Positions 371-12,386 of a stretch of 64,000 nt of DNA are shown here, one piece after another. This DNA comes from Vicinamibacterales bacterium. Its GTDB lineage: Bacteria > Acidobacteriota > Vicinamibacteria > Vicinamibacterales > UBA8438. The translations under genes and the position numbers were made by a program. Positions within the stretch are counted from its first letter, which is position 1. Each line of letters begins with the position of its first letter. Location: NCBI GenBank assembly GCA_965242835.1, contig OZ251506.1, positions 2,842,130 to 2,906,129 on the forward strand. Reading direction: 5' to 3'. The notes beneath the pieces are model-generated. The model was given only the letters and a program-made list of their open reading frames with translations, was not told the DNA's origin and made no database searches.

Positions 371-765
371 GGCGCGTTCGTAAACAGGTCTTGTGGCGTC
401 ACGGTCGGGGCGTTGCGGCCGGCGCGTTCGTAAACAGGGCTTGTAGCGGCGCGGCCGGGGCGGCGCGGCCGGCGTCGACGTCGTGACGGGCCGGCGCCCG
501 GGTTTGCGGGGGCTCGTGGCGTTCCCGCTGGCGTACCGCGGCCGGCGTTTTCCGCCGGGGCGCCGCGGCAGGTGTCGACGTCTGTGACGGGCCGGTGCCC
601 GGGTTCACGGGGCTTGTGGCGTTCCCGCCGGCGTACCGCGGCGGCGTTCCCGCCGGGGCGCCGCGGCCGGCGTCGGCGTCGTGACGGGCCGGCGCCTGGG
701 TTCACGGGGGCTCGTGGCGTTCCCGCCGACGCGCCGCGGCCGGCGTTCCCGCCCGCGCGTGTTTC
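371..765. repeat. Intergenic degenerate tandem array: 2 x ~50 bp (371-470), then 3 x ~100 bp (471-570, 571-668, 669-~765)
   Basis: Direct reading. Units start ggcg(c/t)...; the cores gtcgacgtc(g/t)tgacgggccgg and (c/t)ttgtggcgttcccgc recur. The array lies between the divergent FKBP and beta-propeller genes. Confidence 0.8.
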
Positions 766-836
766 GGGCACGGCGTACAGGCTTGTCGCGTCGCGGCCGG
801 GGTTCCGCGGCGCGCGTTTTCGCAAGGCGGTGACCG

Positions 837-2192
837 ATGGGGAAGGGTTTCCTGTTCCGTGCGTTCGTTCCGGCGCTGTCGGCGGCGCTCTCCGCCGCGC
901 CGGCGGCGGCGCAGTCCGGTTCCGACGCCGCGGCCTCCGGCGACTGGCCCCAGTGGCGCGGGCCGCTGGCGACCGGCGCCGCGCCGGCCGGCGATCCGCC
1001 CGCGCGCTGGAGCGAGACGGAGAACGTGCGCTGGAAGGTCGAGATTCCGGGCCACGGGCAGGCGTCGCCCATCGTCTACGGGAACCGCGTGTTCGTCCTG
1101 ACGGCGGTTCCCGGCGGTCCCGGAGACGGCGCGGGCGACGGCTTCTTCTCGCGCCTCCGGCGGCGCTTCATGGGCACGGTCGGTTCCGGCGACCTGCTGC
1201 GCTTCGTCGTCCTCGCCGTCGACCGCCGCGACGGGTCGCTGGTCTGGGAGCGGACCGCGGTGACCGAGCAGCCGCACGAAGGCCGGCACAACACGGGAAG
1301 CTGGGCGTCCGGGTCGGCGGTGACCGACGGAGAAGTGGTCTGCGCCTTCTTCGGGTCGCGCGGTCTCCACTGCTACGACGTGGACGGCGAACCGCTGTGG
1401 AACCGCGACTTCGGCGACATGCGCATCCGCATGGGCTTCGGCGAGGGGGCCTCGCCGGCGCTGCACGGCGATGCGATCGTCGTCGTCTGGGACCACGAGG
1501 GGCAGTCGTTCGTCACCGCGCTCGACAAGCGGACCGGGGCCGAGCGGTGGCGCACCGACCGGGACGAGATGACCTCCTGGTCGACGCCGCTCGTCGTCGA
1601 GCACGCGGGCGGAACGCAGGTGGTGACCAGCGCCACGGACGGCGTGCGCGGCTACGACTTCGAGACCGGCGAACTCCTGTGGGAAGGCGAGGGCGTGACG
1701 ACGAACGCCATCCCGTCGCCGGTCGCCGCCGGGGGCGTCGCCTATCTGATGAGCGGCTACCGCGGCAACCGGCTCTACGCGGTCGACCTGTCGGCGGCGC
1801 GCGGGCGCATCTCGGACGGCGGAGCGGTCGTCTGGTCGCTCGACCGCGACACGCCCTACGTGCCGTCGCCGGTGCTGCACGACGGCATCCTGTACTTCAC
1901 GAAGAGCAACTCCGGGGTGCTCTCGGCCTACGACGCCGCCAGCGGGGAGAACCTCTACGGCCCGGTGCGGCTGCCCGGCATCCGCGACGTCTACGCCTCG
2001 CCGGTCGTCGCCGGCGGCCGCCTCTACGTCACGAGCCGCGACGGCGTCACGCTGGTCGCGAAGGCCGGCCCGGAGTTCGAGGTCCTGGCGACGAACCGTC
2101 TCGAAGACGACTTCGACGCCTCGCCGGCCGTCGCCGGCGGGGAGATCCTTCTCCGCGGCCGGCGCTACCTGTACAGCATCGCGGCGGATTGA
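837..2192 (+). CDS. PQQ-like beta-propeller repeat protein (BamB/YfgL-like fold), secreted
   Basis: ORF 837..2192. Signal peptide FVPALSAALSAAPAAAQ; repeated W-x-x motifs such as DWPQWRGP, GNRVFV, GSLVWE, GELLWE and GILYF are typical of PQQ_2/PQQ_3 propellers. Confidence 0.85.
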   Translation: MGKGFLFRAFVPALSAALSAAPAAAQSGSDAAASGDWPQWRGPLATGAAPAGDPPARWSETENVRWKVEIPGHGQASPIVYGNRVFVLTAVPGGPGDGAGDGFFSRLRRRFMGTVGSGDLLRFVVLAVDRRDGSLVWERTAVTEQPHEGRHNTGSWASGSAVTDGEVVCAFFGSRGLHCYDVDGEPLWNRDFGDMRIRMGFGEGASPALHGDAIVVVWDHEGQSFVTALDKRTGAERWRTDRDEMTSWSTPLVVEHAGGTQVVTSATDGVRGYDFETGELLWEGEGVTTNAIPSPVAAGGVAYLMSGYRGNRLYAVDLSAARGRISDGGAVVWSLDRDTPYVPSPVLHDGILYFTKSNSGVLSAYDAASGENLYGPVRLPGIRDVYASPVVAGGRLYVTSRDGVTLVAKAGPEFEVLATNRLEDDFDASPAVAGGEILLRGRRYLYSIAAD

Positions 2193-2371
2193 CGATGCGG
2201 CGTCCGGGATCGGCGAGCCGGCGCGTGGAGATCGCGGCCGACCCGTCCCCGGTTCGTCCGTCCTGGAATTCGGACGGCGCCCGGGAGCGTCGGGCGGTCA
2301 TGACGTTGGCCCGCGATCGTGCGCGCGGTGCGTGAAGTACAATTCGGTGCGAGGCTGTCGAGGGGAGGACG

Positions 2372-2677
2372 ATGGGGCGGATCCAGGCACGTGAACGGCG
2401 GATGACGCCGGCGATTTCGCTCCAGGAGCTCCGCCGGCCGCTCCGGCGCCGGGAGCAGCGCCTGCCGGCTGGCAGGGGGCGGGACGTCCTGAACGCCCTG
2501 GGCCGCCTCGTGGAGCAGGGCGACGAGCAGGCCGAAGCCGTGGCCGAGGCGCTGGCGTGCGCGCTGATCTGCGAGGCGATGACGACACGCCTGATCGACG
2601 AACGCCGTGGAGCCGTGCCGGAGTTCATCGGGAGGATCAGGAAGGCGGTCGATGCGTTCGAGGCGAACCTCCATTGA
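2372..2677 (+). CDS. Hypothetical small protein (101 aa)
   Basis: Strong SD (gaggggagga) just upstream of the ATG and a TACAAT -10-like box at 2338-2343. Composition is plausible in the C-terminal two thirds. No family recognised. Confidence 0.5.
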   Translation: MGRIQARERRMTPAISLQELRRPLRRREQRLPAGRGRDVLNALGRLVEQGDEQAEAVAEALACALICEAMTTRLIDERRGAVPEFIGRIRKAVDAFEANLH

Positions 2678-2887
2678 ATGAGACGCCGCGGCCCCGGGAC
2701 CCGGCGCTCGATCCCGAAGTGGTCGGGGAGGATCAGCCGCGCGCCGGCAAGACGGATTCCAGTCCTCGGGTGTTTCAGGAGATCTTCGCGAGCTTCGCCA
2801 GGAGCAGCGGTCCCGCGTATCACCCGATCTTCCCGGCAACGCTATAATCGCGCCGCGCGGCGGGTCCCGCGCCGCCGCGCGAATCCG

Positions 2888-4213
2888 ATGCGCATCATCT
2901 CGATCACCGCCGGCGCCGGCGGCATGTACTGCGGAAGCTGCATCCGCGACAACACGCTGGCGAAGGCGCTGCGGCGGCTCGGGCACGACGTGCTGCTGGT
3001 GCCGCTGTACACGCCGCCGCGCACGGACGAGCCGAGCGTCAGCGAACAGCGGGTGTTCTTCGGCGGCATCAGCGTCTACCTCGAACAGTACTCCCGCCTG
3101 TTCCGCGGCACGCCGTGGCTGGTCGACCGGCTGTGGGAGGCGCCGTGGCTGCTGCGCGCCGTCTCGCAGCGCGGCGTGCGGACGCAGCCCGAGCAGTTGG
3201 GGGAGCTGACCGTCTCGGTGCTCGAAGGCCGGCACGGCCGCCAGCGCAAGGAGTTCGAAAAACTCGTCCACTGGCTGCGTTCGGAACCGAAGCCGGACGT
3301 GATCGACGTCTCCAACTCGATGCTGATCGCGCTGGCGCCGGCGTTCAAGGAGGCGCTCGGTTGCGGCGTCTGCTGCACGCTGCAGGGCGAGGACGTCTTC
3401 CTGGACCATCTCGACGAGCCGTACCGCTCCCGGGCGCTGGCGCTGATACGGGAGCACGCCCGGTCGGTCGACCGCTTCGCCGCGGTCAGCGACTACTACG
3501 CCGGCCACATGGCGCGGTACCTGCGCATCCCCGGCGCGAAGCTGGACATCGTGCCGCTCGGCATCGACGCCGAAGGCTACCCGGCGGCGGCGCGGGACGA
3601 GTCCCGACCGTTCACCATCGGCCATCTCGGCCGGATCGCGCCGGAGAAGGGCATCCACCTGCTCTGCGACGCCTACCACCGCTTGCGCGCGCGCGGCGGC
3701 CTGGAGGGCTGCCGCCTGGAGCTGGCGGGCTATCTGGGACCGGAGCACCGGGCGTATCTGGACGGCATGCTGCGCCAGGTCCGCGAGTGGGGCCTGGAGG
3801 CGGAGGTCCACTACCGCGGCGTGCTGGAGCTCGACGACAAGGTGGCGTTCCTGCAGCGCCTCGACGTGTTCGCGGCGCCGGCCACCTACGACGACCCGAA
3901 GGGGCTGTCGCTGGTGGAGGCGATGGCGTGCGGAACGCCCGTGGTCGCGGCGCGGCGCGGCACCTACGTCGAGCTGCTCGAGCGCACCGGCGGCGGCGTG
4001 CTCGTGCCGCCGGAAGACGCCGAGGCGCTGCAGGTCGAGTTGTCGCGGATGCGCGCCGACGAGCGATGGCGCGGCGAACTGGCGGCGCGCGCCGCCGCCG
4101 GCGTCCGCGAGCACTACAGCGCCGCGGTCATGGCCCGCCGCGCCGCCGACGTGTATCGGCGCGTCAGTCCGTCGCCGGCGGAAGACGCCGACTCGGGGTC
4201 CGGCCGCGCATAG
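2888..4213 (+). CDS. Glycosyltransferase, GT-B fold (family 1/4)
   Basis: Internal start MRIISITAGAGGMYCGS within ORF 2678..4213. C-terminal motif GLSLVEAMACGTPVVAARRG with EL is typical of the Glycos_transf_1 family. A TATAAT sits at 2844-2849. Confidence 0.85.
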   Translation: MRIISITAGAGGMYCGSCIRDNTLAKALRRLGHDVLLVPLYTPPRTDEPSVSEQRVFFGGISVYLEQYSRLFRGTPWLVDRLWEAPWLLRAVSQRGVRTQPEQLGELTVSVLEGRHGRQRKEFEKLVHWLRSEPKPDVIDVSNSMLIALAPAFKEALGCGVCCTLQGEDVFLDHLDEPYRSRALALIREHARSVDRFAAVSDYYAGHMARYLRIPGAKLDIVPLGIDAEGYPAAARDESRPFTIGHLGRIAPEKGIHLLCDAYHRLRARGGLEGCRLELAGYLGPEHRAYLDGMLRQVREWGLEAEVHYRGVLELDDKVAFLQRLDVFAAPATYDDPKGLSLVEAMACGTPVVAARRGTYVELLERTGGGVLVPPEDAEALQVELSRMRADERWRGELAARAAAGVREHYSAAVMARRAADVYRRVSPSPAEDADSGSGRA

Positions 4214-7244: not shown

Positions 7245-8786
7245 ATGACGAAACCGACCAGCCTGTTCGCGGCCGTGCTCGTAGCCTGGACGACGGCGTG
7301 CGGCGGGGCGCCGGAACCGCCCCCCGAGGAAGCGGACGCGGGCCCGGCCGCGGAGCCGGCCGGCGAGGGGTCCATCCTGCGGCTCGATCGGCGGCTCGAC
7401 TCGCTCGTCCCGCCCGGCGCGGCCATCGAGAAGGTGGCCGAGGGCTACACGTTCACGGAGGGGCCGGTCTGGATCCGGGGAGAGCAACGGCTGCTCTTCT
7501 CGGACGTGCGGGCCAACGCCATCCACCAGTGGACCGAGGCGGACGGCGCGAGTCCGTTCCTCGACCCGGTCTTCGATGGGGACCGCGAAGGGCTGCGGTC
7601 GATCTCGTCCAACGGCCTGACCTTCGACGGCGAGGGCCGGCTGATCATCTGCGAGCACGGCGCCCGCCGCATCTCGCGGCTCGAAGAGGACGGCAGCCGC
7701 ACGGTGGTGGTCGACAGCTTCGAGGGCGGACGCCTGAACAGCCCCAACGACGCCGTCTTCGGCTCCGACGGCTCGCTCTACTTCACCGATCCGCCGTACG
7801 GCCTGGAGGGACTCGAGGAGTCGCCGCTGCGCGAGCTCGACTTCAACGGCATCTACCGCCTGCGGCCGGATGGCGAGCTGCAACTGCTCGTGCGCGACCA
7901 GACCCGTCCGAACGGCATCGCGCTGTCGCCCGACGAGTCCACGCTCTACGTCGCCAACTCCGACCAGGACCAGAAGGTCTGGATGGCGTACGACCTCGAC
8001 GAGGACGGCGCCTCCAACGGGCGGGTCTTCTTCGACGTCAACGACCAGACCGCGGCCGGGGCCGCCGACGGACTGAAGGTCGACCTGCGCGGCAACCTCT
8101 TCGCCACCGGCCCGGGCGGCGTCTGGGTGTTCGGGCCGGACGGCGTCCACCTCGGGACCCTCCTGATGCCGGAGGTGACCGCCAACGTCGCCTGGGGCGG
8201 CGACGGGCGCACGCTCTACATGACGGCGAGCACCGGCGTCTACCGTATCGAGCTGGCCACCGCGGGCGCGATTCCGGGCAACCCCGTCGTGGTGATGGAG
8301 ACCACGATGGGCGACGTCACGATGGAGCTGTTCGCGGACCGGGCGCCGGTCTCGGTCAACAACTTCCTGCAGTACGCCTACGCCGGCTTCTACGAGGACA
8401 CCGTCTTCCACCGCGTGATCGAGGACTTCATGATCCAGGGCGGCGGGATGGGGGCGGACCTCGTGCCGAAGATCGCCCGCGAGCCGATCGCCAACGAGGC
8501 CGCCAACGGCCTCGGCAACCGGCGGGGCACGGTCGCCATGGCCCGGACGAACGCCGTCCACAGCGCCACGTCGCAGTTCTTCATCAACCACGCGGACAAC
8601 GGGGGCCGCGGCCTCGACCACCGCGGCCCGGCGCCGGACGAGTACGGCTACGCCGTCTTCGGCGAAGTGACCGCCGGCATGGACGTCGTCGACGCCATCG
8701 CCGGGGTCGAGACGACCGCGCAGGGCGGGCACGGGAACGTGCCGGTGACCCCGGTCGTGATCGACGCGATCACCGTGCAGCCGTAG
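7245..8786 (+). CDS. Lipoprotein fusing an SMP-30/gluconolactonase/LRE-like propeller to a cyclophilin-type PPIase
   Basis: Lipobox LVAWTTAC. N-terminal LNSPNDAVFGSDGSLYFTDPPYG and LYVANS motifs. C-terminal VVMETTMGDVTMELFADRAPVSVNNFLQY...FHRVIEDFMIQGGG (cyclophilin). Confidence 0.85.
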   Translation: MTKPTSLFAAVLVAWTTACGGAPEPPPEEADAGPAAEPAGEGSILRLDRRLDSLVPPGAAIEKVAEGYTFTEGPVWIRGEQRLLFSDVRANAIHQWTEADGASPFLDPVFDGDREGLRSISSNGLTFDGEGRLIICEHGARRISRLEEDGSRTVVVDSFEGGRLNSPNDAVFGSDGSLYFTDPPYGLEGLEESPLRELDFNGIYRLRPDGELQLLVRDQTRPNGIALSPDESTLYVANSDQDQKVWMAYDLDEDGASNGRVFFDVNDQTAAGAADGLKVDLRGNLFATGPGGVWVFGPDGVHLGTLLMPEVTANVAWGGDGRTLYMTASTGVYRIELATAGAIPGNPVVVMETTMGDVTMELFADRAPVSVNNFLQYAYAGFYEDTVFHRVIEDFMIQGGGMGADLVPKIAREPIANEAANGLGNRRGTVAMARTNAVHSATSQFFINHADNGGRGLDHRGPAPDEYGYAVFGEVTAGMDVVDAIAGVETTAQGGHGNVPVTPVVIDAITVQP

Positions 8787-8854
8787 CGGGAACCACGGGC
8801 GCTTCGTGCCGTACAATACGCGGCATGCCACTTGATTTCACGGCGGTCGGTTTG

Positions 8855-8872
8855 CCCCCCCCCCCCCCCCCC
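8855..8872 (+). repeat. Homopolymeric C18 tract followed by GGAA + G6 (possible C6:G6 hairpin with GNRA loop)
   Basis: Direct count from tttg-C18-ggaagggggga. Lies 38 nt downstream of a TACAAT box (8812-8817) and 70 nt upstream of the GTG start of the adhesin-like gene. Confidence 0.95.
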
Positions 8873-8942
8873 GGAAGGGGGGAGCAGGGTCGCGGCTGCC
8901 GGTAACCCTGCCGCGCGGCCCGACGCGCAAGGAGCTTCATCC

Positions 8943-10647
8943 GTGTCCCACGACCTTGGTCTTCCCCGACCGAACCGGCTCGCTTCGCGGGCCCGCCCGG
9001 GCGTCGCCGGGCTGGCGCTCGCCGCGGCGGTGCTGTCCGCGCCGTTCGCCGATGCGCAGACGGTCTCCATCACCTCCACCCCCGCCCAGCGGCTCCACCT
9101 ACGGCGCCGGCGAGACCATCACCACCCGGCTCAGCGGCCTCGCCTCGCTCGAGGGCGGCAACCCCAGCATCGCCACGATGAGGCTCGACGTCGGCGGCGT
9201 GGAGCGTCAGGCGAGCAGCACCACCTCCTTCGTCAGAGGCATCACGCAGGTGAACTTCTCCTACACCGTCACCGTCGACGATCGCGACACCGACGGCATC
9301 ACCATTCCGGCCAACTCCGTCGACACCGGCGGCAGCACCTGGAGAACCCTGGGCGCCGCGATCATCAACCGCAACCACGCCGCTCTGAGCAACCAGGCCG
9401 GGCACCGGGTGGACGGGTACCGGGGGACGCCGGGGGTGATCGGCCTGGAGCTGAATTCGCCGCTCGGGGCGGTTCCGTACTTCGAGCGGGGCGACGCGAT
9501 CGACGCCACGGTGCGGTTCACCCAGGCGGTGGACGTGACGGGGACGCCGCAACTGGCGCTGGCCATCGGTTCGAACACCCGGCAGGCGTCCTACGTCGGC
9601 GGCACGGGCACTACGAGGCTGGTGTTCCGCTACGTCGTGGTCTCGACGGACGACGACCCCAACGGCCTCAGCATCGCGGCGAACGCGCTGACCGGGGGGA
9701 CGATCCGGGTGGCGGGCGGCACGACGAACGCCACGCGGGGGCTGGGCGCCCGCGCCGTCTCGAACAGCGCGGGCCACCTGGTGGACGGCTCGCTGCTGAC
9801 GCCGGCGGCGGTGAACGGGGCGTCCATCACGAGCCGCCCGCGGGCGGGGGGTTCGTACGGACCGGGCGAGCGGATCGAGGTCGATGTGCGGTTCTACCGG
9901 GCGGTGGCCGTGTCGGGGACGCCGCAACTGGCGCTGACCATCGGCAGGGAGACCCGGCAGGCGGACTACGCCTCGGGCACGGGCACGATGACGCTTTCGT
10001 TCTCGTACGTGGTGGCGGCGAACGACGTGGACGAGAACGGCGTCGGCGTGGCCGCGGACGCGCTGACGCTCAACGGCGGGGAGATCGACGACGCGCGCAG
10101 CGCCACGACGCCGGCGAACCTGGACCTGGGGAGGAACGCGATCCGCGACGCCGCCGGGCACCGGGTGAACGACACCCTGGGCGGCCCGCCCGGGCCGGCG
10201 CCGCCCGAACCGCCGGCGGGAGTGGAGACGGCTTCGGCCGGCGACGGCAGCGTGACCATCTCCTGGGCGCATCCGGGAGATCCGGACGTCGCCTCCTACG
10301 AATACCTGCTGCAACGGGCGGGGCGCGCGGTCGGGGACTGGCGGACGGTCCCGGGCAGCGACGCCGACACCACCAGCGTCACGATCGACCTGACGACCGG
10401 CGAAGCCCGCGCCGTCAACAACGCCGCGCCGCCGGCCGAATGGACCATCCTGCTTCGCGCCCGCGACCGGAACGGGAACGCCGGGGGCATCGCCAGAACG
10501 ACCGTGACCGCCGCGGGAACGCCCGTGCCGGCCGTTCCCGCGGCGTGGCTGGGGGTGCAGGCGTTGCTGCTGCTCCGCGTTTACCGGAAGAGAAGCCGAA
10601 TGCTCCGCCGCCCGCCGGCCGGCGGGAGAGGCCGGCAGACCGGCTGA
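8943..10647 (+). CDS. Secreted/cell-surface repeat protein (3 adhesin-type Ig-like repeats + FN3-like domain + C-terminal hydrophobic anchor); reading frame broken once near 9079-9087
   Basis: GTG 8943 frame gives signal peptide RPGVAGLALAAAVLSAPFADAQTVSITSTPA. The continuation GSTYGAGETITTRLSG is in the frame of ORF 8956..10647. Repeats share GTPQLAL(A/T)IG..TRQA.Y..GTGT..L.F.YVV...D.D.NG. Tail: VPAVPAAWLGVQALLLLRVYRKRSR. Confidence 0.7.
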
Positions 10648-10750
10648 CGTTTCCTCGCCGCCGCCGTTCGGCCGTCGAACCGCGCACCGGCATCGCGGGC
10701 GGGCCGCGCCGCTCTCGAAGCGCGGATCCGCCGCGCGATGCTCGTCAAGG

Positions 10751-10849
10751 CCGCCGTCCCTCGCCGCGCGGGCGAGCGTCGCGGCCGGCGCGAGGGCGTC
10801 GGCCACAACCGCCGTCCCTCGACGCGCGGGCGAGCGTCGCGGCCGGCGC
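10751..10849. repeat. Two 41-bp direct repeats (10751-10791, 10809-10849; 1 mismatch), each with an internal CTCGCC...GGCGAG hairpin
   Basis: Direct reading: ccgccgtccctcg(c/a)cgcgcgggcgagcgtcgcggccggcgc. Confidence 0.8.
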
Positions 10850-10860
10850 CCCTCCTACCA

Positions 10861-10934
10861 TTGACGAAACACGACTTGACAAAAAACGACTTGACAAAAC
10901 ACGACTTGACGAAACACGGCGTCCGCCCCATACT
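10861..10934 (+). promoter_or_regulatory. Four in-phase 15-bp tandem repeats, each carrying TTGAC(A/G); the last one is 17 bp from a CATACT -10-like box, 6 nt before the ATG
   Basis: ttgacgaaacacgac / ttgacaaaaaacgac / ttgacaaaacacgac / ttgacgaaacacggc (10861-10920). CATACT at 10929-10934; ATG at 10941. An AT-rich island in a GC-rich context. Confidence 0.55.
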
Positions 10935-10940
10935 GCGGCG

Positions 10941-12386
10941 ATGGCGGCCTTCGTCGGGCGGGACACGGAACTGCGGCTGCTGGCGCAGGCGTTCGAGTCC
11001 CCGCGCTCGGCGCTGATCCCGATCTACGGCCGGCGGCGGGTCGGCAAGAGCGAGCTCATCCTGCGGTTTCTGGCCGGCAGGCCCGGCGTGTACTACCTGG
11101 GGCAGCAGTCGGCGGCCGGGCTGCAGGTGCGCGAGTTCCTGGCCGAGGCGGGCCGCGTGCTCGACGTGCCGTTGCTGGCGGAGCTGCGCGTCGGCGACTG
11201 GCGGCAGGCGCTGCTCACCGTGACCAGGCAATGGACGGCGGCCCATCCGGGGGCGAAGCTCGTCCTGGCCCTGGACGAATTCCAGTGGATGGCGGCGGCC
11301 AGCCCCGGCCTCCTCTCGGCGTTGCAGCACTGCTGGGACCGGGAGTGGAAGAAGTCGGGCTCCGTCGTGCTGCTGCTGTGCGGTTCGTACCTCGGGTTCA
11401 TGGAACGCGAGGTGCTCGGCAAGGCGAGCCCCCTGTTCGGCAGGCGCACCGCGCAGATCCACCTGCAGCCGTTCGGCTATCTCGATGCGGCCCGGTTCCA
11501 TCCGCGCTGGTCGCCCGAAGACCGGGCGAAGGCGTACTTCCTGGTCGGCGGCCTGCCGCAATACCTGCTCTGCCTCGACGACGCCCGGTCCATCGCCCGG
11601 AACGTGCGCCGCGCCCTGCTCGACGAGTTCGCGCCGCTGTTCCACGAGCCGGAGTTCCTGCTGCGCGAGGAACTGCGCGAGGTCGCGCCGTACCACGCGG
11701 TGCTCTTCGCCGTCGCGTCCGGCCACGGCGCCGCGCCGGCCATCGCCGCCGCCGCCGAGCTGCCCGAGCGCAACCTGCCCTACTACTTGCAACAACTCGT
11801 GAACCTCGGCTACCTGCGGCGCCGCTACCCGCTCGACCGCCGCCGGCCGAATCCGAAGCAGGTGCGCTTCGGCATCGACGACCCGCTGCTGCGCTTCTGG
11901 TTCCGCTTCGTGTTCCCCAACCGGAGCGCGATCCGCGGCAGCGGCCCCGAGCGGGTGTTCGCCGACCGCATCGCCCCGGAGCTCGACGCCTGGTTCGGGT
12001 CCGGCTTCGAACGGCTGTGCCGCGAGGCGCTGCCCCTCGTCTACGCGGCCGAGGGGGTCACCGCGGGGTTCGAGGTGGGCGAGTACTGGAGCCGCCCGCG
12101 GCGGAACGCGGCCGGGGCCGCTTCGCCCGACGCGCCCCCGGCCGCGCAGATCGACGTCGTCGGACTGCGCGACGACGACTGGACCGACCTCGGCGAGTGC
12201 AAGTGGGGCGCCGTGCCGTCGGCCCCGGCGCTGGAGGCCGAGCTCGACCGGAAGGCGCGCCTCTACCCCAACCGCCGCGGCGCCACGATAGGCCGCCGCT
12301 GTTTCGTGCGCCGCAAGCCGGCCTCCCGGTCCTCGGCGCCCGGCTGGTACTCGCTTCGGGACCTGTACGCGCTGGACGCCGCGTAG
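10941..12386 (+). CDS. ATP-binding protein, archaeal-type ATPase (Arch_ATPase-like) with C-terminal DUF234 (PD-(D/E)XK-like) domain
   Basis: C-terminal part of the composite 8832..12386 ORF. FVGRDTELRLL, Walker A IYGRRRVGKSELI, Walker B LVLALDEFQ, wHTH-like LQQLVNLGYLRRRYP, and IDVVGL...LGECKWG (D..ExK). Confidence 0.85.
   Translation: MAAFVGRDTELRLLAQAFESPRSALIPIYGRRRVGKSELILRFLAGRPGVYYLGQQSAAGLQVREFLAEAGRVLDVPLLAELRVGDWRQALLTVTRQWTAAHPGAKLVLALDEFQWMAAASPGLLSALQHCWDREWKKSGSVVLLLCGSYLGFMEREVLGKASPLFGRRTAQIHLQPFGYLDAARFHPRWSPEDRAKAYFLVGGLPQYLLCLDDARSIARNVRRALLDEFAPLFHEPEFLLREELREVAPYHAVLFAVASGHGAAPAIAAAAELPERNLPYYLQQLVNLGYLRRRYPLDRRRPNPKQVRFGIDDPLLRFWFRFVFPNRSAIRGSGPERVFADRIAPELDAWFGSGFERLCREALPLVYAAEGVTAGFEVGEYWSRPRRNAAGAASPDAPPAAQIDVVGLRDDDWTDLGECKWGAVPSAPALEAELDRKARLYPNRRGATIGRRCFVRRKPASRSSAPGWYSLRDLYALDAA

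Follow-up and report, generated by a model that had tools for sequence, protein, structure and literature searches.

What does an uninterrupted run of 18 cytosines do in front of the gene of a putative surface protein? The question is raised by a stretch of 64,000 nucleotides (nt) from a Vicinamibacterales (Acidobacteriota) bacterium (assembly GCA_965242835.1, contig OZ251506.1, positions 2,842,130 to 2,906,129), which we call the window and number from its first letter. In this window a C18 tract precedes a gene for a protein built of immunoglobulin (Ig)/fibronectin type III (FnIII)-like domains. Homopolymer slippage is textbook knowledge as a cause of phase variation in Neisseria, Haemophilus, Campylobacter, Bordetella and Moraxella, and the comparisons described here tip the balance towards the C18 tract being a contingency (phase-variation) switch of the surface-protein gene. 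In the family to which this gene belongs, a long G/C homopolymer recurs at the 5' end, and we regard the locus as a credible candidate for a phase-variable one, whose switching is supported by comparison and not proven. The argument uses the following elements:

8812-8817, + strand: -10-like box TACAAT, read from the sequence and identical in the same-species scaffold L081
8855-8872, + strand: C18, candidate slipped-strand switch, starting 38 nt past the -10-like box and ending 70 nt before the GTG start
8929-8934, + strand: Shine-Dalgarno (SD) sequence AAGGAG, 8 nt before the GTG, kept in L081 and in the tract-less relative L082
8943-9086, + strand: 5' part of the surface-protein open reading frame (ORF), frame 0, with the signal peptide VSHDLGLPRPNRLASRARPGVAGLALAAAVLSAPFADA and then QTVSITSTPA (from translation, intact orthologues and G+C content at third codon positions, GC3)
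9085-9087, + strand: frame-break site, CCC against CC in orthologues (one extra C, from alignments)
9088-10647, + strand: remainder of the surface-protein ORF, frame 1 (from translation; GC3 0.85-1.0)

Base composition does not account for the tract. The G+C content of the window is 73.4%, and the table of run lengths over the 64 kb shows that all other runs reach at most G7 or C6. At a C frequency of 0.36, about 1e-3 runs like C18 are expected on both strands of the 64 kb and, given this expectation and the G7/C6 maximum, chance does not explain the tract. The positions of the TACAAT box, of C18, of the GGAA and G6 that follow it, of the GCAGGG/CCCTGC pair, of the GTG and of a C5-G-C3 run in the coding region were all found to be correct in the original prediction when checked against the sequence. 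Judged from the box, transcription would start near 8824-8826, some 30-48 nt from the tract, which is presumed to occupy the 5' leader and not a promoter spacer.

The length of the tract differs within the species. L081 is an independent short-read metagenome scaffold, syntenic with the window and 97.2% identical to it in nucleotide sequence over 6.6 kb, and comes from the same species. The window has C18 followed by GGAAGGGGGG and L081 has C16 followed by GGGGAGGGGGG; L081 also carries T4 for T3 at 8836, and the intergenic region measures 156 nt in both. Comparing strains or metagenome-assembled genomes (MAGs), as had been proposed at the outset, thus returned two tract lengths (C18 vs C16) at 97.2% identity.

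Similar tracts recur among the homologues of the gene, for which amino acid (aa) identities refer to the repaired protein, the 567-aa product obtained when one C is removed at the frame break:

L083, protein P0005: 69% aa identity to the repaired protein; C17; second leader type
L084, protein P0004: 69% aa identity to the repaired protein; C13; second leader type
L085, protein P0010: 52% aa identity to the repaired protein; C11; second leader type
L089, protein P0035: 33% aa identity to the repaired protein; C18, in the arrangement AAGGAG-N11-ATG CTA C18
L153, protein P0024: 46% aa identity to the repaired protein; G16, 51 nt past the called ATG
L154, protein P0018: 45% aa identity to the repaired protein; G16, 51 nt past the called ATG
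L082, protein P0003: 76% aa identity to the repaired protein; no tract in the 114 nt of upstream sequence covered
L086, protein P0012: 47% aa identity to the repaired protein; no tract

A G/C run of at least 11 nt was present at the 5' end of eight of the ten evaluable family genes (C11-C18 or G16); L087 and L088 were left out of this tally as 2-4x long-read contigs with fragments of giant genes, whose 5' ends are unusable. The tract-bearing loci fall into four unrelated flanking-sequence contexts, and this recurrence at the 5' ends of homologues strengthens the initial idea of a hypermutable tract. For comparison, the 1.24 Mb of loci fetched for the gene upstream of the leader, which is unrelated to the family, contain four G/C runs of at least 11 nt (about 1 per 300 kb), a background rate which corresponds to about 1e-3 expected per 250-nt 5' region. 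The N-termini of two other proteins of the family, P0061 (CBDEVO010000003.1, the L003 genome), which starts MITQPPPD, and P0124, which starts MSALQSPPPPG, suggest further 5' C tracts. In metagenome contigs from JGI, the leader pattern with exact flanks had zero matches, and a profile search found 63 distant relatives of the protein (30-49% aa identity). Short runs accompany two of the 63: C10 about 390 nt upstream in L100, and C9 inside the ORF in L124 (2528-2536), a large repeat-protein ORF in which the reading frame seems to change at that point.

How might such a tract act? Slipped-strand mispairing at replication would alter its length, presumably within the population, and its placement varies from member to member, between the leader and an N-terminal coding extension ahead of the signal peptide. 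In the intragenic versions, a change in length would shift the reading frame and turn expression ON or OFF. In L085, L089, L153 and L154 the first in-frame start past the tract falls in the hydrophobic core of the signal peptide, so translation begins upstream and the tract is intragenic. The second leader type (L083, L084 and L085) has a conserved GGAGG-N8/9-ATG before the tract; L083 with its C17 is in frame with this ATG, and L084 (C13) and L085 (C11) are each 1 nt off. The genome of the window itself encodes P0125, which reads MQRAVDASCRLR-PPPP-EHQAGVVKARS, so that the frame of an SD-preceded ATG is joined to the adhesin frame. In L084, an allele of P0125 (at least 90% aa identity), the tract region is one base longer and out of the ATG frame, and a difference of this kind at the tract is the signature expected of a translational switch. 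P0126, also from the genome of the window, has an N-terminus of the L083 type with six Pro residues; together with P0125 and the window gene it brings the tract-bearing paralogues of this genome to at least three. Both Pro-coding (C) and Gly-coding (G) runs are found, each using a single codon, which argues for selection on DNA and not on the peptide.

The sequences around the tracts are conserved in part and mosaic in part. Identity among L083, L084 and L085 is higher in the leaders (82-86%) than in the coding sequences (68-79%). From the -10-like box to the C tract these leaders span about 125-135 nt (L083 7906-8042, L084 128-256, L085 3901-4035); they include the conserved GGAGG-N8/9-ATGCAGC and have no Rfam match. 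The homology of L084 with L083 and L085 ends at the tract, and that of L082 with the window begins just past the tract position. Around these genes we also observed, in L083 at 10215-10601 and thus some 400 nt beyond the P0005 gene in the downstream direction, the C-terminal FnIII-like and anchor region in a second but partial copy, 82% identical in aa sequence to residues 398-526 of the mature window protein (tblastn with a query lacking the signal peptide); this copy may have arisen by duplication or rearrangement, or it may serve as a silent cassette. A gene for a Uma2-family endonuclease lies downstream of the surface-protein gene in L083 (10709-11344) and L085 (5948-6583), and in L089 three tandem tyrosine-recombinase (Phage_integrase) genes and a helix-turn-helix gene (467-3344) lie upstream of P0035, an arrangement that resembles the recombinase-in-trio element.

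The window version would have to work in another way. A change in tract length there would most likely alter the amount or the translatability of the mRNA, and so grade expression, by analogy with uspA1 of Moraxella catarrhalis. If TACAAT is a -10 element, the position of the tract between the presumed transcription start and the start codon fits a transcribed leader of the uspA1 type. A TAnAnT box is found upstream of the tract in all eight tract-bearing loci, at a distance of 37-205 nt and in the extended form TGnTAnAnT in five of the eight, so the box first noticed in the window gains support from every sequence context. Since it precedes every tract, the tracts are probably transcribed and are not promoter spacers. 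The C-stretch of the Bordetella fim genes does sit in the promoter spacer, and a switch of this type was considered for the window: no -10-like hexamer follows the tract, and the sequence 3' of C18, GGAAGGGGGGAGCAGGG, contains none. An invertible promoter was rejected as well; the inverted pairs detected were all weak (71-87% complementarity over 13-24 nt), and none brackets the leader meaningfully.

The window thus offers three features of a contingency locus, namely an over-long homopolymer, its location in the presumed leader of a gene with a surface product, and a length that is polymorphic between conserved flanks. Several points weigh against a switch all the same. The SD-preceded GTG at 8943 lies downstream of the tract, so a frameshift cannot switch the window ORF, and L082 uses the same SD and GTG with no tract. 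A scan of 8500-9300 with sigma-70 and terminator consensus sequences returned no full -35/-10 pair and no intrinsic terminator, and the transcription start is proposed from the -10-like box. Only two window-type tract alleles were recovered, and no such tract accompanies the distant JGI relatives (30-49% aa identity). That the length can be stable is shown by L153 and L154, which share G16 although their flanks diverge by about 20%; and in long-read MAGs, to which several of the assemblies belong, homopolymers may be miscounted by 1-2 nt. Finally, the ON calls partly reflect the extension of ORFs by gene callers in stop-poor, high-GC DNA.

The leader of the window contains two hairpins, on the first of which one of the other explanations of the tract partly draws:

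8867-8882, + strand: C6-GGAA-G6 hairpin, from sequence and fold; any six C can pair with the G6
8873-8876, + strand: GGAA loop, from sequence
8877-8882, + strand: G6 run, from sequence
8884-8911, + strand: second hairpin GCAGGG...CCCTGC (arms 8884-8889 and 8906-8911), from sequence

Both exist as originally drawn, but the first, described as capped by a GNRA loop, is not conserved: L081 has the loop GGGGA, in the other contexts the tract is not followed by a run of G, and the C6-GGAA-G6 hairpin is absent from L082, L083, L084, L085 and L089. The stem of the second hairpin is identical in the window, L081 and L082 and its loop differs; these three sequences contain no covarying pair and are too few for a test of structure. 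The fold of the window leader is not better than that of shuffled sequences (z = -1.5), and among the leaders folded as RNA only that of L085 was more stable than its shuffles, with no structure shared among them. Rfam held nothing relevant to the leaders of the window, L083 or L153. A terminator or structured RNA element was rejected on these results, namely the z of -1.5, the hairpin that is not conserved, the missing Rfam match and the absence of any terminator-like site.

The tract could nevertheless be a fixed cis-acting nucleic-acid element, its length polymorphism being incidental. As RNA it would be a Rho-loading (rut-like) site or the site of a C-binding protein and would lead to premature termination or attenuation, perhaps modulated by pairing with G6; as DNA, a G-quadruplex of the template G18 or an i-motif of C18 would impede RNA polymerase. 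Rho has no stronger known activator than poly(C), and since a -10-like box stands upstream of it in every context, the tract is probably transcribed; it is unpaired in the predicted minimum-energy folds of L083 and L084 and partly paired with G6 in those of the window and L081, and conservation is higher in the leaders than in the coding sequences. We still consider such an element rather unlikely: L153 and L154 have G16 in place of C, a swap that a role in binding Rho or a poly(C)-binding protein would not survive; in four loci the tract is inside the ORF, shielded by translating ribosomes; no conserved structure surrounds the tract and Rfam gives no match; and frames differ between alleles, as a switch predicts. 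Loss of function is an unlikely alternative of another kind, in which the tract is the relic of an ancestral intragenic switch or of a recombined leader module and no longer controls this decaying gene. Here the break of the gene by an additional C not present in four orthologues, the recurrence of its ORF design in the tract-less L082, the mosaic homology that breaks at the tract position (L084 vs L083/L085; L082 vs the window) and the interrupted run of L085 (CCTCCT and then C11, as decay predicts) all fit. Long perfect homopolymers are, however, expected to vanish quickly without selection, and uninterrupted runs of 16-18 nt are kept in two alleles that differ at 2.8% of sites; apart from its single insertion the gene has high GC3 and an open frame throughout, and its close relative P0122 is intact.

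A further possibility is that the window tract is itself translated, from a TTG at 8832 (in frame with GTG 8943 through C18) or from a leaderless ATG at 8825, which opens a short upstream ORF (uORF):

8825-8905, + strand: speculative 26-codon uORF MPLDFTAVGLPPPPPPGRGEQGRGCR*, with its ATG 8 nt past the -10-like box and C18 read as six Pro codons

The length of the tract would then set the frame and yield either an N-terminal extension or a uORF that ends before the SD or overruns it and in this way governs the use of GTG 8943 as a start. From 8787 onwards no stop interrupts the adhesin frame, to which TTG 8832 belongs; ATG 8825 lies at the usual distance for a transcription start from TACAAT, and the layout resembles that of L083, L089 and L153, where the start precedes the tract. 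In L081 a +1 change (T3 to T4) and a -1 change in the tract region compensate each other, so that TTG 6352 is in frame with the GTG and the 156 nt are kept; compensating indels of this sort are, on the other hand, found about 1 time in 3 by chance. Translation of the tract seems to us quite unlikely, as neither TTG 8832 nor ATG 8825 is preceded by an SD, no GC3 coding signal was found across 8800-8940, and a strong, conserved SD with its GTG lies downstream. The peptide from start to tract is wholly different in the window and L081, and that of the uORF is likewise not conserved in L081, where the T4 run shifts the frame. Much more remote is a sequencing or assembly artefact such as poly-G/C read tails or homopolymer over-calling. 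Long-read consensus can miscount homopolymers, and an exact length of 18 as opposed to 17 or 19 is not to be trusted from an assembly. But the tract lies well inside its contig, between flanks that are both unique, frame breaks are not in excess elsewhere in the window, comparable tracts occur in seven further loci from six different assemblies, and the C16 version of the same leader stands in L081, an independent short-read scaffold from another sample. A contingency switch is the reading that we retain.

The gene behind the tract is, in this genome, additionally broken by a 1-nt insertion at 9085-9087. Frame 0 has the highest GC3 between GTG 8943 and about 9080; from about 9090 onwards, up to the stop at 10647, it is frame 1. 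In the C5-G-C3 region (9079-9087) the window reads CCCCCGCCCAGC, whereas L081, L082 and L084 read CCCCCG-CCAGC, and four orthologues (P0001, P0003, P0122 and P0123) are intact across the site. The frame break suspected from the C5-G-C3 run is confirmed by this shift of GC3 and by the one C in excess of the orthologues. The C2/C3 run at 9085-9087 is likely too short to be a plausible slippage tract, and the break is either a true insertion that inactivates the gene or a lone error of the consensus. We rejected programmed +1 ribosomal frameshifting at 9079-9087 on account of the four orthologues without the extra C. An error-ridden assembly was rejected too: over the 6.6 kb compared with L081 there is a single frame-breaking indel within a gene, and segmentation by GC frame shows that most genes of the window end at stop codons.

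The repaired protein, which would be secreted and anchored in the membrane, starts with a signal peptide, followed by three repeats of about 125 aa and an FnIII-like domain; its C-terminus is formed by a hydrophobic helix and a basic tail. It had no sequence match in Pfam, NCBIfam or the PDB. The AlphaFold model of P0001, a 94%-identical orthologue (mean predicted confidence, pLDDT, 75.9), shows all-beta repeats and a helix at 533-550, and Foldseek with this model retrieved tandem Ig/FnIII ectodomains, e.g., RPTP sigma, contactins and fibronectin. 'Adhesin-like surface protein', as the gene product had been called, is on this model a fair structural description. The public gene call P0121 (531 aa, NCBI and ENA) equals the frame-1 product of the window from ATG 9052 (9052-10647), so the deposited genome carries the same break; P0121 has no signal peptide, the true start of the gene being masked by the frameshift at 9085-9087. 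The matter is also one of annotation, as gene callers put the tracts inside ORFs or truncate the genes (P0121, P0004 and P0010). Frame 0 is open on the + strand over 3.6 kb, from 8787 to 12386, and runs through the leader and that part of the gene which is out of frame, then through the intergenic sequence and the ATPase_2/DUF234 gene that follows (10941-12386). A spurious 1184-aa ORF (8832-12386) appears in the mechanical ORF list because the 73% G+C DNA is poor in stops.

Upstream of the leader lies one further gene:

7245-8786, + strand: fusion of a gluconolactonase-like SGL domain (SMP-30; PF08450, E = 2e-48) with a cyclophilin (PF00160, E = 6e-40)

Its GC3 is 0.9-1.0 in frame 0, its stop codon lies 25 nt before the -10-like box, and it is syntenic in L081. 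An exact look-up of its protein returned no record; its relatives are all from Vicinamibacterales MAGs, with up to 88% aa identity. In ten other Vicinamibacterales species synteny is lost downstream of this gene, and no tract was found there in any of them.

Long C tracts were observed in two loci outside the family. In another Vicinamibacterales genome (L002, 8484-8523), a C14 forms the 3' arm of the hairpin GGGGGGCGTCC-N8-GGACGC14; it lies about 40 nt past the stop of a gene, between convergent genes and not at a 5' end. In a Thermodesulfobacteriota MAG of 48% G+C (L051, OY729416.1), a C21 (15348-15368) ends 9 nt before the ATG of a gene with a signal peptide and FnIII-like sequence, and a C12 (15466-15477) follows directly after the signal peptide. 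With C12 the ORF stops past the tract, and C11 would restore the frame; the design is the same in an unrelated phylum, which hints that it may be more widespread.

What would such a switch mean for its host? The contigs of the relatives appear to come from sponge metagenomes, judging by the names of samples and assemblies, and Vicinamibacterales are mentioned in a study of sponge-associated microbial lineages (PMC8941161). We tentatively suggest, as a possibility more doubtful than the switch itself, that host-associated Vicinamibacterales, probably sponge symbionts, run a multi-gene 'phasome', in which each genome would have several paralogues of the Ig/FnIII-like surface protein, every one with a separate G/C homopolymer before it, and cells would display these eukaryote-like adhesion proteins in stochastic combinations. 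Homopolymer switches of this kind have so far been described mainly in host-adapted pathogens, and a search of the full-text literature found no paper combining Acidobacteria, phase variation and homopolymeric tracts. If the tracts do switch, an uncultured and probably host-associated acidobacterial lineage stochastically diversifies its surface Ig/FnIII-like proteins, which would matter for the way in which symbionts deal with phages, with phagocytosis or with recognition by the host. If the phasome is real, contingency loci, known from pathogens, would also exist in Acidobacteria and in symbionts of early-diverging animals.

The known systems closest to the present one differ from it in instructive ways. 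In M. catarrhalis, a transcribed G(n) tract upstream of uspA1 alters mRNA levels, and a G(n) tract in the 5' part of the ORF of mid/hag switches expression on and off (PMC7302503). Homopolymeric G/C tracts by adhesin genes are common to both cases, and the upstream and the 5'-ORF layouts are both found in the present family. The Moraxella tracts, however, measure 6-12 nt against 11-18 nt here, and they belong to the trimeric autotransporters of a human pathogen, whereas the Ig/FnIII-like repeats come from a high-GC acidobacterium and are unrelated to those proteins. The fim2, fim3 and fimX genes of Bordetella have an upstream 'C-stretch' of C10-C19, a promoter element that is polymorphic between strains and whose length affects transcription (PMC1891110). 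There the C runs are of similar length, upstream of genes for surface structures and in a high-GC genome; in the present loci every context has a -10-like box before the tract and none after it, which makes a promoter-spacing mechanism unlikely. The poly-G genes of Neisseria and Campylobacter are intragenic switches with the homopolymer at the 5' end. In Listeria, a poly-A tract near the 5' end of the ORF of the surface protein InlA (inlA) likewise switches it ON and OFF by frameshift (PMC2831843). L085, L089, L153, L154 and P0125 resemble these intragenic switches, from which the window differs in that its tract lies upstream of an SD-preceded start, and the family in that its intragenic tracts occupy an N-terminal extension ahead of the signal peptide.

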